From Escherichia coli (lineage in GTDB: Bacteria; Pseudomonadota; Gammaproteobacteria; Enterobacterales; Enterobacteriaceae), in assembly GCF_003334815.1 (NCBI RefSeq), contig NZ_QOWO01000010.1: a DNA stretch of 64,000 bases; one strand, written 5' to 3'. The position numbers and the translations under genes are program-made. Below are positions 6,231 to 10,506 of this stretch, in pieces (the first letter of the stretch is position 1; every line of letters begins with the position of its first letter). The notes under the pieces are model-generated. The model worked only from the letters and a program-made list of their open reading frames with translations. It did not search any database and was not told where the DNA came from.

Positions 6231-7406
6231 ATGCAAAAACTCATTAACTCAGTGCAAAACTATGCCTGGGGCAGCAAAACGGCGTTGACTGAACTTTATG
6301 GTATGGAAAATCCGTCCAGCCAGCCGATGGCCGAGCTGTGGATGGGCGCACATCCGAAAAGCAGTTCACGAGTGCAGAATGCCGCCGGAGATATCGTTTC
6401 ACTGCGTGATGTGATTGAGAGTGATAAATCGACTCTGCTCGGAGAGGCCGTTGCCAAACGCTTTGGCGAACTGCCTTTCCTGTTCAAAGTATTATGCGCA
6501 GCACAGCCACTCTCCATTCAGGTTCATCCAAACAAACACAATTCTGAAATCGGTTTTGCCAAAGAAAATGCCGCAGGTATCCCGATGGATGCCGCCGAGC
6601 GTAACTATAAAGATCCTAACCACAAGCCGGAGCTGGTTTTTGCGCTGACGCCTTTCCTTGCGATGAACGCGTTTCGTGAATTTTCCGAGATTGTCTCCCT
6701 ACTCCAGCCGGTCGCAGGTGCACATCCGGCGATTGCTCACTTTTTACAACAGCCTGATGCCGAACGTTTAAGCGAACTGTTCGCCAGCCTGTTGAATATG
6801 CAGGGTGAAGAAAAATCCCGCGCGCTGGCGATTTTAAAATCGGCCCTCGATAGCCAGCAGGGTGAACCGTGGCAAACGATTCGTTTAATTTCTGAATTTT
6901 ACCCGGAAGACAGCGGTCTGTTCTCCCCGCTATTGCTGAATGTGGTGAAATTGAACCCTGGCGAAGCGATGTTCCTGTTCGCTGAAACACCGCACGCTTA
7001 CCTGCAAGGCGTGGCGCTGGAAGTGATGGCAAACTCCGATAACGTGCTGCGTGCGGGTCTGACGCCTAAATACATTGATATTCCGGAACTGGTTGCCAAT
7101 GTGAAATTCGAAGCCAAACCGGCTAACCAGTTGTTGACCCAGCCGGTGAAACAAGGTGCAGAACTGGACTTCCCGATTCCAGTGGATGATTTTGCCTTCT
7201 CGCTGCATGACCTTAGTGATAAAGAAACCACCATTAGCCAGCAGAGTGCCGCCATTTTGTTCTGCGTCGAAGGCGATGCAACGTTGTGGAAAGGTTCTCA
7301 GCAGTTACAGCTTAAACCGGGTGAATCAGCGTTTATTGCCGCCAACGAATCACCGGTGACTGTCAAAGGCCACGGCCGTTTAGCGCGTGTTTACAACAAG
7401 CTGTAA
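6231..7406 (+). CDS. manA: Mannose-6-phosphate isomerase
   Basis: 391 aa from MQKLINSVQNYAWGSK; the track ORF carries a 26-codon upstream extension. Confidence 0.93.
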   Translation: MQKLINSVQNYAWGSKTALTELYGMENPSSQPMAELWMGAHPKSSSRVQNAAGDIVSLRDVIESDKSTLLGEAVAKRFGELPFLFKVLCAAQPLSIQVHPNKHNSEIGFAKENAAGIPMDAAERNYKDPNHKPELVFALTPFLAMNAFREFSEIVSLLQPVAGAHPAIAHFLQQPDAERLSELFASLLNMQGEEKSRALAILKSALDSQQGEPWQTIRLISEFYPEDSGLFSPLLLNVVKLNPGEAMFLFAETPHAYLQGVALEVMANSDNVLRAGLTPKYIDIPELVANVKFEAKPANQLLTQPVKQGAELDFPIPVDDFAFSLHDLSDKETTISQQSAAILFCVEGDATLWKGSQQLQLKPGESAFIAANESPVTVKGHGRLARVYNKL

Positions 7407-7506: not shown

Positions 7507-9015
7507 ATGAATAAATCGCTGGTAGCGGTAGGCGTCATTGTTGCGCTAGGCGTAGTCTGGACAGGCGGCGCATGGTATACAGGCAAGAAGATTGAAACCC
7601 ATCTCGAAGACATGGTCGCGCAGGCGAACGCGCAACTCAAACTGACAGCTCCTGAATCCAACCTGGAAGTGAGTTATCAAAACTATCATCGCGGCGTATT
7701 CAGCAGCCAGTTGCAACTGTTGGTGAAACCCATTGCCGGGAAAGAAAATCCGTGGATTAAAAGCGGTCAGAGCGTCATCTTCAACGAATCGGTTGATCAT
7801 GGTCCCTTCCCGCTTGCCCAGCTTAAAAAACTGAACCTGATCCCGTCGATGGCATCAATTCAAACCACGCTGGTTAATAACGAAGTAAGCAAACCACTGT
7901 TTGATATGGCAAAAGGTGAAACGCCTTTTGAGATTAACTCGCGCATTGGTTACAGCGGTGATTCCAGTTCCGATATTTCGCTCAAGCCACTGAATTACGA
8001 GCAAAAGGATGAAAAAGTCGCCTTTAGCGGCGGCGAGTTCCAGTTAAATGCTGACAGAGACGGCAAAGCCATCTCCCTTTCCGGGGAGGCGCAAAGTGGT
8101 CGGATAGACGCAGTTAACGAATACAACCAGAAAGTGCAGTTGACCTTTAATAATCTGAAAACCGACGGTTCCAGCACGCTGGCAAGTTTTGGTGAGCGTG
8201 TAGGAAATCAAAAACTGTCACTGGAAAAAATGACCATTTCAGTGGAAGGCAAAGAACTGGCACTGCTGGAAGGCATGGAGATCAGCGGTAAATCGGATCT
8301 GGTCAATGACGGTAAAACGATCAATAGCCAACTGGATTACTCGCTAAACAGCCTGAAGGTACAGAATCAGGATCTGGGCAGCGGCAAGCTGACTTTAAAA
8401 GTCGGCCAGATTGATGGTGAAGCCTGGCATCAGTTTAGCCAGCAATATAACGCGCAAACTCAGGCGCTGCTGGCACAGCCAGAAATTGCCAACAACCCCG
8501 AACTTTATCAGGAGAAAGTGACGGAAGCCTTCTTTAGCGCCCTGCCGCTGATGCTGAAAGGCGATCCGGTGATTACTATCGCGCCGCTAAGCTGGAAAAA
8601 CAGTCAGGGTGAAAGTGCCCTGAATCTGTCGCTGTTCCTGAAAGATCCGGCAACGACTAAAGAAGCGCCGCAAACGCTGGCGCAGGAAGTAGATCGTTCG
8701 GTTAAATCTCTGGATGCGAAACTGACCATTCCGGTGGATATGGCAACTGAGTTTATGACTCAGGTAGCGAAGCTGGAAGGTTATCAGGAAGATCAAGCGA
8801 AAAAACTGGCGAAACAGCAAGTTGAAGGTGCATCAGCAATGGGGCAGATGTTCCGTCTGACCACCTTGCAGGACAATACCATCACCACCAGCCTGCAATA
8901 TGCTAACGGTCAGATAACGTTAAATGGGCAGAAAATGTCGTTAGAAGATTTTGTTGGCATGTTTGCGATGCCAGCTCTTAACGTTCCGGCTGTACCGGCA
9001 ATTCCGCAGCAGTAA
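7507..9015 (+). CDS. ydgA: DUF945 family protein YdgA
   Basis: 502 aa ORF with N-terminal hydrophobic signal-like segment; recognised as ydgA. Confidence 0.85.
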   Translation: MNKSLVAVGVIVALGVVWTGGAWYTGKKIETHLEDMVAQANAQLKLTAPESNLEVSYQNYHRGVFSSQLQLLVKPIAGKENPWIKSGQSVIFNESVDHGPFPLAQLKKLNLIPSMASIQTTLVNNEVSKPLFDMAKGETPFEINSRIGYSGDSSSDISLKPLNYEQKDEKVAFSGGEFQLNADRDGKAISLSGEAQSGRIDAVNEYNQKVQLTFNNLKTDGSSTLASFGERVGNQKLSLEKMTISVEGKELALLEGMEISGKSDLVNDGKTINSQLDYSLNSLKVQNQDLGSGKLTLKVGQIDGEAWHQFSQQYNAQTQALLAQPEIANNPELYQEKVTEAFFSALPLMLKGDPVITIAPLSWKNSQGESALNLSLFLKDPATTKEAPQTLAQEVDRSVKSLDAKLTIPVDMATEFMTQVAKLEGYQEDQAKKLAKQQVEGASAMGQMFRLTTLQDNTITTSLQYANGQITLNGQKMSLEDFVGMFAMPALNVPAVPAIPQQ

Positions 9016-9024
9016 TTCACGGCC

Positions 9025-9058
9025 AAAACGCCGGAGAATTTTCACTCCGGCGTTTTCA
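9025..9058 (+). terminator. Hairpin terminator downstream of ydgA
   Basis: AACGCCGGAG-loop-CTCCGGCGTT then TTTCATC. Confidence 0.6.
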
Positions 9059-9079
9059 TCTGAAAACAAACCAGAGATT

Positions 9080-9177
9080 GCCTGATGCGCTACGCTTATC
9101 AGGCCTACCTTTTCCTGCAACACTTTGAATTTATGAGTTTTTGTAGGCTGGATAAGGCGTTTACGCCGCATCCGGCA
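9080..9177. repeat. REP/BIME-type extragenic palindromes (inverted pair) between ydgA and uidC
   Basis: GCCTGATGCGCTACGCTTATCAGGCCTAC (9080-9108) and inverted GTAGGCTGGATAAGGCGTTTACGCCGCATCCGGCA (9143-9177). Confidence 0.8.
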
Positions 9178-9207
9178 TAAAAAACGCGCACTTTGTCAAC
9201 AATCTGA

Positions 9208-9242
9208 AACGCCGGAGATTTTTCTCTCCGGCGTTATTTTTT
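9208..9242. terminator. Hairpin abutting the uidC stop codon (near copy of the 9025 hairpin)
   Basis: AACGCCGGAGA-TTTTTCT-TCTCCGGCGTT then ATTTTTT on the plus strand. Confidence 0.55.
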
Positions 9243-10506
9243 ACTTCAGCATAAAGTCATACTGAATACTCATTTTCACATCCCAGTAATTCAGGCGATC
9301 GCCCAGCGTACTGCCATCGCGCTTTTCCCGCCCTTTATCGGCAGCAAGAAAGAAATTCATCCCTTGTAACGGCCCTTCGCTGACCCGATAGTTCATACCA
9401 CCTAAGATACCCGTGCCTTCAATCCGCACATCTCGTTTACTGGATTCATAGCCGCGAGTCACAATCGGTGCAAATGTCAGCGTAAATTGCGGCGTTAAAC
9501 GATAGTTGACGCCCAATTGCCAGGACTGCATTCCTTCACGGTTACGATCAAGACTTAATGAAAAGGGATAGCCAATGTCGGTATCCACCACGGCACCATT
9601 CATTGCATGGCGCAAATAACCACCACTGCCAAATACACTTCCCCACGGCGCATTCCAGGTCAATTGTCCACTAACCAACGCCGTTTCATTGGGCTGGCTG
9701 GTATTACGACTTAAACCTTCGAGCTGCGCGTAAAAGCCGAGCAACTCCCCTTTCAACGTATAATTCGGGTCGAGCGGTATGCTTTTCTCGAGAATACTTT
9801 GTATCTGATTGGAAACATCTTTCTGTACCGATGCCCCCAGAGAATAGCGACTGGTATCATCATGCCAACTGGCGGCTAAAAAAGAACGTGCGCGATGTTT
9901 ATCGTATTTTCCCGTCTGGCTGTTATACACCCCTTCATCACGAATACCGGTTGTTGAATCAGTCCATAAAAATACTCGTGAACGCCACATTCCCCACAGA
10001 TCAATATTTGGTGTTAAAGCCCAATAACCTAATGCTCCTTCAGAAACTGTCGGTAATGTACGTTGCGAACTGCCAGCCATTAACGGAATACGATAAGGTA
10101 AGCTACCATAACTATAATCCGTCCCGAAGCGACCTAATTTAAGCAGGCTATTTTCACTGGGTTTTATTTTTACTGCCCCCAGGGCAAAGCCAAAACTTTT
10201 ATCACCATCAAGATACCACCGGGTACTCATATCAGCACGAGCACCTAATTTATAAACATAATACGCCCCGCCTTCAACGCCAATAATATTGGAATAATAA
10301 CCACTATTGAAATCGAGCAATCCTCCCTGTACCCATGCGTAAATATCTCTTCCCGCGCCAGCACTGGGCTTATCCGCCCTGCGCAATTCGTTTTTCAGTC
10401 TGATGCGTAGTCCCGCTTCATCGTCAGCCAGTTGCGCCGCATAAGCAGAGGTAAGGCCAGAGGCAGCCGTCAGGCAAATAACGGCCATGGCCACTATTTT
10501 TCTCAT
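9241..10506 (-). CDS. uidC: Outer-membrane glucuronide porin UidC
   Basis: 421 aa ORF with signal peptide and C-terminal aromatic residue; downstream of uidB. Confidence 0.88.
   Translation of the reverse strand: MRKIVAMAVICLTAASGLTSAYAAQLADDEAGLRIRLKNELRRADKPSAGAGRDIYAWVQGGLLDFNSGYYSNIIGVEGGAYYVYKLGARADMSTRWYLDGDKSFGFALGAVKIKPSENSLLKLGRFGTDYSYGSLPYRIPLMAGSSQRTLPTVSEGALGYWALTPNIDLWGMWRSRVFLWTDSTTGIRDEGVYNSQTGKYDKHRARSFLAASWHDDTSRYSLGASVQKDVSNQIQSILEKSIPLDPNYTLKGELLGFYAQLEGLSRNTSQPNETALVSGQLTWNAPWGSVFGSGGYLRHAMNGAVVDTDIGYPFSLSLDRNREGMQSWQLGVNYRLTPQFTLTFAPIVTRGYESSKRDVRIEGTGILGGMNYRVSEGPLQGMNFFLAADKGREKRDGSTLGDRLNYWDVKMSIQYDFMLK

Follow-up and report, generated by a model that had tools for sequence, protein, structure and literature searches.

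In a 64-kb stretch of Escherichia coli DNA (hereafter the window), the convergent genes ydgA and uidC are separated by a 225-bp spacer, the filled allele of this site, in which an inverted pair of REP sequences lies between two near-identical hairpins. Where did the second hairpin come from, and did the REP pair bring it about? A preliminary description of the window had offered two explanations, a duplicated terminator and a REP insertion that duplicated its target. We compared the spacer with its counterparts in other E. coli genomes and with other loci that carry the same kind of element. Positions are those of the window, in which position x corresponds to MG1655 coordinate x + 1,682,345, and the features are collected in Table 1.

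Anatomy of the spacer and transcript ends

The arrangement of two hairpins around an inverted REP pair was borne out. Both hairpins are real, but the end coordinates first assigned to them (9058 and 9242) overrun the stems by a few bases into the T-tracts. The arms of hairpin 1 (9025-9036 and 9045-9056) pair over 12 bp with 100% complementarity around an 8-nt loop, and those of hairpin 2 (9208-9218 and 9225-9235) pair over 11 bp around a 6-nt loop. Viewed as a direct repeat, positions 9026-9054 and 9207-9235 match at 27 of 29 nt (93%) with a start-to-start distance of 181, and the two copies differ at two loop positions. The pattern AACGCCGGAG-N4-12-CTCCGGCGTT occurs exactly twice in the window, where 0.00 occurrences are expected (100 shuffles). 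Folded as RNA in either strand, both hairpins reach about -20 to -22 kcal/mol with z about -6. The left copy retains the native A-tract side (CCAAAA), and the right copy retains the native T-tract (ATTTTTT).

Table 1. Features of the ydgA-uidC spacer and hairpins duplicated around BIME-1 at other loci
Feature	Position	Strand	Sequence or basis
ydgA CDS	7507-9015	+	ORF; annotated ydgA in MG1655 and other genomes; upstream convergent gene
Left copy of duplicated target	9026-9054	.	palindrome AAACGCCGGAG-AATTTTCA-CTCCGGCGTT; matches single hairpin of empty-site alleles
BIME-1 left arm	9056-9079	+	24 nt, TCATCTGAAAACAAACCAGAGATT; divergent version of consensus GAGACTGATGACAAACGCAAAAYT
Z1-type REP (palindromic unit)	9080-9108	+	GCCTGATGCGCTACGCTTATCAGGCCTAC; columns invariant across 12 BIME-1 copies
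L linker	9109-9142	.	34 nt; read from sequence
Y-type REP (palindromic unit), inverted	9143-9177	-	GTAGGCTGGATAAGGCGTTTACGCCGCATCCGGCA; alignment with other BIME-1 copies
BIME-1 right arm	9178-9207	+	TAAAAAACGCGCACTTTGTCAACAATCTGA; imperfect inverted repeat of left arm; conserved in all copies
Right copy of duplicated target	9207-9235	.	AAACGCCGGAGA-TTTTTC-TCTCCGGCGTT; here the 3' ends of ydgA and uidC transcripts were mapped to meet
uidC CDS	9241-10506	-	ORF and genome comparison; downstream convergent gene; stop codon 5 nt from hairpin 2
tkt			duplicated hairpin AAGGGCCGC..GCGGCCCTT
rutG-ymdF			duplicated hairpin CCGCCGGGGTTACCCGGCGGTG
barA-gudD			duplicated hairpin AACGGCTCTGTAAGGAGCCGTT
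L022			duplicated hairpin AGCCGCGTTAGCGGCTT
L024			duplicated hairpin AACGAGGAG..CTCGTT
L028			duplicated hairpin AGCGCGTCyAGTTGATGCGCTT
yfbU-yfbV			duplicated hairpin GAAGGCTTATCTATGCCTTCT
obgE-dacB (E. whittamii)			diverged hairpin pair with compensatory stem changes

The segment between the hairpins (9056-9207), which directly abuts both 29-nt copies, is a canonical BIME-1 (RIP/RIB) of 152 nt, the family consensus being 153 nt. It consists of a left arm, a Z1 REP, a 34-nt linker with an IHF-like site, an inverted Y REP and a right arm, and it is present as a single unit between the stop codons of the two convergent genes. The element aligns over its full length with other BIME-1 elements and is 84% identical to the family consensus; in the alignment with 11 other copies, the columns of its one Y and one Z1 unit, which have opposite orientations, are invariant or nearly so. 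The putative IHF site lies on the minus strand at 9118-9130 and matches the consensus at 12 of 13 positions (ATTCAAAGTGTTG vs WATCAANNNNTTR); a linker of about 34 nt with such a site is characteristic of BIME-1, and the TTGAATT core is kept across the aligned copies. IHF binding to BIME-1 linkers is established (PMC3333891).

The arms outside the palindromic units are those of the conserved 153-nt unit. The right arm is family-like, whereas the left arm is divergent, with the expected length and a partial likeness to the family (CTGA..ACAAAC). The terminal inverted repeat AGAYTGWTGACAAA matches at 12 of 14 positions, and across loci the unit measures a constant 153 nt from GAGACTGA to AATCTGA. 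Right arms are found in 1-20 copies per E. coli genome (median 8). A 30-mer from the left arm of the ydgA-uidC element is single-copy and confined to the 1,752 genomes with a filled site. Its left arm and linker occur at the ydgA-uidC locus only, and no donor copy was identified for it. In composition, order, orientation, size and extragenic position at gene 3' ends the element is the same as the BIME-1/RIP/RIB of E. coli. The element itself is no different from those described before, and what is added here is the direct duplication of the terminator hairpin on its flanks and the generality of that duplication. That BIME-1 is polymorphic in presence and absence among strains has already been published (PMC1187871, PMC3333891).

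An Rfam scan of 8500-9800 returned a sub-threshold naRNA4 match and weak chance matches only, and no RNA family applies. The naRNA4 match (9146-9187) scores 37 bits, below the gathering score of 59.5; we rejected an identity with this REP325-derived sRNA, as the match reflects the shared Y REP only. The short ORFs that overlap the spacer (8941-9171 on the minus strand and 8951-9085 on the plus strand) are mechanical and span the REPs. The window contains a second REP pair at 53616-53790, downstream of a 193-aa ORF that ends at 53614 and that we take, from its C-terminal sequence, to be sodB. Here a Z1 unit (~53638-53666) and an inverted Y unit (~53680-53713) are accompanied by a BIME-1-like left arm (ACTGATGGCAAATGCAGCATT) and a 13-nt linker, without the BIME-1 right arm; part of a further Y-like sequence (CACCGCATCCGGCA) follows at about 53773-53786. 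We saw no duplicated hairpin around the 53616-53790 pair.

The arrangement had also been proposed to insulate the uid locus from ydgA read-through, with mapping of transcript 3' ends as the check. A terminator scan of the plus strand called hairpin 2, which folds with -20.9/-22.6 kcal/mol; hairpin 1 has UUUU only. In a published table, the log-phase overlap of ydgA and uidC transcript ends is placed at MG1655 1691549-1691583, i.e. at 9204-9238 of the window, which is hairpin 2, and hairpin 1 is absent; the table reuses an earlier data set of bidirectional terminators (bioRxiv 10.64898/2026.03.23.713779). Hairpin 2 thus combines a G+C-rich stem-loop, a U-tract and transcript 3' ends, as a bidirectional intrinsic terminator does. 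From the overlap mapped to hairpin 2, it follows that ydgA transcripts pass hairpin 1 and BIME-1 and stop at hairpin 2. In K-12, the 3' UTR of the ydgA mRNA carries hairpin 1 and BIME-1, and hairpin 2 is the working bidirectional stop. In K-12, hairpin 2 does the insulating, and in this respect the pair adds nothing beyond the single hairpin of empty-site strains, which does the same job.

Empty and filled alleles of the spacer

When 5,426 complete E. coli genomes were searched with the 501-bp region, only 1,751 gave full-length matches. By the unique left arm, the filled site is present in 1,752 genomes, including K-12, BL21, MC4100 and E. coli W, and the filled alleles are 99-100% identical over this arm. 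In O157:H7, ST131, PapM-32-1 and Res13 the spacer is 44 bp long and contains one hairpin. When the filled and empty alleles are aligned, a clean 181-bp gap comprises one element and one hairpin. The empty O157 site used as a query matched 3,666 genomes at 80% coverage or more, about 215 of which are filled genomes whose two halves were joined; after their subtraction, about 3,450 of the 5,426 genomes have the empty site (94-100% identity), O157:H7, O111:H8, ATCC 25922 and ST131 among them. About 220 genomes are without the ydgA-uidC locus.

The comparison called for in the preliminary description thus produced the single-hairpin, REP-less alleles that an insertion predicts: most E. coli have one hairpin and no REP block, and their spacer is shorter by exactly 181 bp. 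The case that was named as refuting, a two-hairpin allele without REPs, was seen in none of the sampled alleles. Because the empty site differs by exactly the element and one hairpin, and because the duplication abuts the element ends, we think it likely that BIME-1 inserted into the single bidirectional terminator of ydgA and uidC and duplicated the whole palindrome (28-30 nt), leaving one copy on each side.

The polarity of this event at ydgA-uidC rests on the distribution of the alleles within E. coli. The reverse would be that E. coli originally had the hairpin-BIME-hairpin arrangement and that recombination or slippage between the 29-nt repeats gave rise, perhaps more than once, to the single-hairpin alleles. 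Direct repeats of such size promote deletion, the ydgA-uidC copy is old-looking (84% identity to the consensus, two differences between the repeats), and the filled allele occurs in phylogroup A as well as in E. coli W. Furthermore, Bachellier et al. are said to have mentioned 'excisions of a whole BIME-1' in an abstract of 1997. However, empty alleles are found in every deep lineage sampled and show much greater diversity than the filled ones (94-100% identity vs 99-100% over the unique arm), and the divergent PapM-32-1 (94.8% identity in uidC) is empty. At another locus, yfbU-yfbV, the insertion polarity is not in doubt (see below), and a loss of the element would leave the origin of the flanking duplication unexplained even if it had taken place. 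We consider the reverse polarity improbable; the allele distribution favours an insertion in one lineage, after which the element may have been lost again in places by way of the hairpins. Since the two hairpins differ at two loop positions and filled alleles occur on more than one flank haplotype (L091), the insertion at ydgA-uidC is not very recent and there has been recombination since.

Several further differences were observed among the alleles. Within the 45 nt at the ydgA stop (8980-9024), the K-12 allele has three differences from all four sampled empty alleles, L001-L004 (CCGGCA vs CCCGCT and CACGG vs CACAG), and therefore the filled site lies on a distinct flank haplotype. The hairpin loop is polymorphic among the empty alleles (ATTTTTCT, GTTTTTCT, GATTTTCA), and in the metagenomic filled variant L091 the loop of the right hairpin resembles that of the empty Res13 allele. 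In the O157:H7 strain F3113 (L002, 1535-2799) and in the ST131 isolate (L003, 1535-2801) uidC is annotated as frameshifted, and in the latter uidB is frameshifted as well (L003, 2840 onward). Some lineages with the empty site have decaying genes for glucuronide uptake.

Hairpins around BIME-1 at other loci

The 22-nt right arm served as the sole probe for collecting BIME-1 copies. We drew on E. coli genomes, on a set with one genome per species, in which six Escherichia genomes matched, and on metagenomes, and scored each copy by the best direct repeat that links the outer 45 nt on one side of the element with those on the other. The metagenome scan gave 88 loci in 12 groups, which were mostly loci already seen, and added variant filled ydgA-uidC alleles. 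A single match of the probe in a Clostridia MAG (L017:122-143) has no REPs nearby and was excluded as a chance match.

At about 10 of the 18 distinct sampled loci, BIME-1 is flanked by a direct duplication of the local terminator hairpin (Table 1). Nine loci score 16-23, while the cross-locus control pairs have a mean of 5.4 and a maximum of 10 (n = 302). In all 9 loci with a score of at least 16 the repeat lies within 1 nt of the element ends, and each such repeat is a palindromic A-tract/GC-stem/T-tract hairpin with a different sequence at every locus. The tenth locus, L019, has an 18-nt exact repeat and a diverged hairpin. The duplications measure 17, 21, 22, 22, 22, 23, 25 and 29 nt, and ~40 nt at L019, and the duplicated segment is the local palindrome within about 2 nt, i.e. 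plus 0-2 flanking A/T pairs. A transposase with a fixed stagger is excluded because the duplicated length follows the local palindrome. The insertion reading is a general one, since the same signature is found at many independent BIME-1 loci with a length that tracks the local hairpin. As judged from these alignments, hairpin-sized duplication appears to be a general, under-described property of BIME-1.

These data bear on two other explanations of the paired hairpins. The first is an adaptive tandem terminator pair that evolved or was duplicated by itself, e.g. for the insulation of convergent genes, with the REP pair settling between the hairpins by chance. Both hairpins are indeed strong (about -20 to -22 kcal/mol), and convergent genes benefit from efficient termination. 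Nevertheless, no allele with two hairpins and no REPs was seen, and what the empty site lacks amounts to exactly the element and one hairpin. Here and at 9 other loci, whose hairpins are unrelated in sequence, the boundaries of the repeats and of BIME-1 agree to within 1 nt, and the proximal copies lose their native U-tracts, by which termination is weakened and not improved. An independent origin of the pair is effectively refuted and hardly deserves credence. The second explanation makes the hairpins part of the mobile element, as the terminal inverted repeats of a larger MITE, since a transposase might in principle bind to palindromic ends. It is refuted, with practically no probability left to it, by the fact that the hairpin differs from locus to locus and is identical to the resident hairpin of the matching empty site.

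About 8 of the 18 sampled loci have no recognisable duplication. Some of these are ancient, such as entD-fepA, whose BIME-1 lacks a duplication and is common to all Escherichia species sampled. At obgE-dacB, both hairpin copies are kept only in E. whittamii, and because the left copy is kept there, it follows that a left copy can be lost secondarily. At four loci beyond the ten with the signature, a hairpin is found beside the right arm only, and the rest, entD-fepA among them, show none. We rejected a mechanistic asymmetry as the cause: the probe requires an intact right arm, which makes this an ascertainment effect, and obgE-dacB has its left copy in E. whittamii. At L019 (~6780-6990, E. whittamii) the element is without the first 16 nt of its left arm, and the flanking repeat reaches 18 nt past the hairpin (TTTTTTCGCCAAAAGCAA) to a junction at an arm-like stretch. 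The sequence suggests that microhomology, and not a clean cut, produced this junction.

Empty sites exist at four loci (ydgA-uidC, yfbU-yfbV, rutG-ymdF and barA-gudD). For the last three, genomes were searched with 'empty' queries, which were made by deleting the element and one hairpin. The reconstructed empty yfbU-yfbV site is covered to at least 80% in 5,420 of the 5,426 E. coli genomes, and among the matches listed it is uninterrupted in 29 of 30 genomes; the site is filled in Escherichia sp. MOD1-EC7003 only. The polarity of the insertion at this locus is not in doubt. The rutG-ymdF site is empty in O157, holds a forward BIME-1 in strain SCPM and a reverse one in an ETEC strain, and the hairpin is duplicated in both filled alleles. 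The barA-gudD site is empty in R32_14_1F, holds a reverse BIME-1 with a decayed left hairpin copy in K-12, and has a forward BIME-1 with perfect 22-nt repeats in strain SCPM. The rutG-ymdF and barA-gudD hairpins were therefore each hit independently, more than once and in both orientations.

At three loci the element and its hairpin form tandem [BIME-1 + hairpin] arrays of 2 (L007), at least 3 (L104) and 5 units (L028). Such arrays are the outcome expected from unequal exchange between duplicated hairpins. The array at L028 (~780-1650, Escherichia sp. MOD1-EC7003) comprises five BIME-1 units and six 22-nt terminator hairpins. Private linker variants are common to different loci of one genome, namely to L028, L030 and L032 in MOD1 and to L013, L015 and L016 in SCPM, which indicates recent copying within a lineage.

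Two other arrangements were observed in the collection. At L027:11551-12372 of MOD1-EC7003 there are six tandem 160-bp units. Each joins a Z2-like REP and a Y REP to the BIME-1 right arm and to a spacer of 35 nt (GGRAACCATCTGGTGCCCTTTTGGGC...); the array is a composite BIME in which the right arm of BIME-1 is used again. At L026 and L051, the hairpin GGTCAGATTTCAATCTGACC immediately to the left of the BIME-1 left arm consists of two inverted right-end octamers (TCAGATT / AATCTGA) and may be the footprint of another element end.

Possible insertion mechanism and the spread of BIME-1

How could an insertion duplicate an entire palindrome? In the scheme that we propose, the terminator would be attacked in an extruded form, as a cruciform or a single-strand hairpin. 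Breaks or joins would be made at the two stem feet on opposite strands, and fill-in would then regenerate the full palindrome on both sides of the element. Later slippage or unequal exchange between the hairpin copies could lead to a precise deletion of the element or to [BIME-1 + hairpin]n arrays. We offer the attack on an extruded terminator, with its opposite-strand breaks or joins and the fill-in, tentatively, as a possible scheme that has more chances to fail than to hold.

The same event could also come about by template switching during replication, in which BIME-1 is copied into the target without a transposase cut. The nascent strand, having just copied the target hairpin, would come off its template and pair again immediately beyond the hairpin of a donor BIME-1, with 2-3 nt of A/T microhomology, copy the 153-nt unit up to a block at the far hairpin of the donor, return to the A-tract of the target and copy the target hairpin again. 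The junctions do have 1-3 nt of ambiguous A or T (CTGA|AACGCC beside the target AAAACGCC), and the left junction of L019 lies inside the left arm, at a point that is like the target sequence 18 nt beyond the hairpin (CCAAAAGCAA vs ACAAACGCAA). The targets have no conserved cleavage motif, and most donors are bracketed by hairpins, which would set constant boundaries for the copy. However, a switch between loci over megabase distances is rare, the element ends are very constant (GAGACTGA...AATCTGA) even where there are no flanking hairpins (entD-fepA, L018), and the lineage-specific bursts suggest an enzyme-like activity that varies among lineages. We regard template switching as somewhat unlikely. 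The constant ends, the terminal inverted repeat with 12 of 14 matches and the lineage-specific bursts favour an enzyme-defined unit, as in the scheme with breaks or joins at the stem feet.

To our knowledge, TnpA-REP is the only candidate enzyme; its gene, yafM (tnpA-REP), is not part of the 64-kb window. The enzyme cuts single-strand DNA close to a REP, at C^T (PMC3333891). Both BIME-1 ends contain C^TGA(T/A), and no C^T dinucleotide is conserved at the target junctions of the sampled loci. We rejected C^T cleavage by TnpA-REP as the reaction that sets the element ends, for a cut there would exclude the conserved GAGAC and TGA from the mobile unit, and C^T is absent from the targets.

Among the characterised systems, REPIN/RAYT (HUH Y1, IS200/IS605-related) resemble BIME-1 in that two inverted REPs form one long imperfect palindrome, in their proliferation within genomes with lineage-specific subfamilies, and in their single-strand or hairpin DNA targets. 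IS200/IS605-type transposition, however, makes no target duplication and uses a short specific target, whereas BIME-1 targets share structure, not sequence, and are fully duplicated. Bacterial MITEs (Correia, RUP, ERIC) are, like BIME-1, small and non-coding, with imperfect terminal inverted repeats, flanking target repeats and empty-site alleles. BIME-1 has the terminal inverted repeats (12/14), the target-derived flanking repeats and the empty sites (four loci) of a MITE, but not the short fixed-length duplication typical of a DDE transposase: MITE duplications are fixed at 2-9 bp by that enzyme, while those of BIME-1 (17-29 nt, ~40 nt at L019) follow the length of the local palindrome.

Extragenic stem-loops also serve as safe havens for IS1397/ISKpn1 (in REP loops), IS110-family elements (in REPs) and class C group II introns (after terminators). 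Such REP- or terminator-targeting elements insert within or just after a hairpin and make duplications of 0-4 bp, whereas BIME-1 leaves a complete hairpin on both sides. IS1634/IS1549-type elements, which are autonomous and IS4-related, make variable target duplications of tens of bp; these are long and variable like those of BIME-1 but, unlike them, not defined by a palindrome. In other phyla, some REP families are found inside small palindromes (PMC3733652), which is a related arrangement and not the same one.

REP and BIME repeats account for a considerable part of the non-coding DNA of E. coli. We found no statement of hairpin-sized duplication or of terminator targeting by BIME-1 in the accessible literature, a scope outside which the primary papers of 1993-1999 fall. 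Reviews describe REPs as being without MITE signatures (PMC3184786), and mechanistic papers of 2011 and 2021 call the dissemination of REPs and BIMEs unresolved (PMC3333891, PMC8266576). A 2026 preprint speaks of 'semi-random' REP insertion, and population models assume that insertion is untargeted and often lethal (PMC8049555). The element at ydgA-uidC is the long-known BIME-1, and the duplication of the terminator hairpin on its flanks, which appears to be under-described, bears on the open question of how these repeats spread.

The insertion signature has three parts: an intrinsic terminator hairpin as the target, a duplication of the whole hairpin, and the occurrence of both orientations. 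It gives trap assays a defined target and provides a bioinformatic rule by which empty sites and new insertions can be recognised in thousands of genomes. It also explains the presence/absence polymorphism of BIME-1 and the formation of tandem arrays. After an insertion the gene-proximal hairpin loses its native U-tract, and as a result the repeat joins the 3' UTR, as in K-12 ydgA. The hairpin duplication, found at about half of the sampled BIME-1 copies, is a clue to the spread of the repeat. BIME-1, and perhaps enterobacterial REP doublets generally, may spread by a structure-directed reaction on extruded terminator hairpins that duplicates the whole hairpin, a conjecture for which we see nearly as much in favour as against. 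If true, the duplicated target would be as long as the palindrome itself, a property that no characterised bacterial transposition system shares. Such a reaction would account for the location of BIME-1 almost solely at gene 3' ends, its tolerance, its precise loss and its tandem amplification, and it would point the search for the mechanism by which these repeats insert in vivo.
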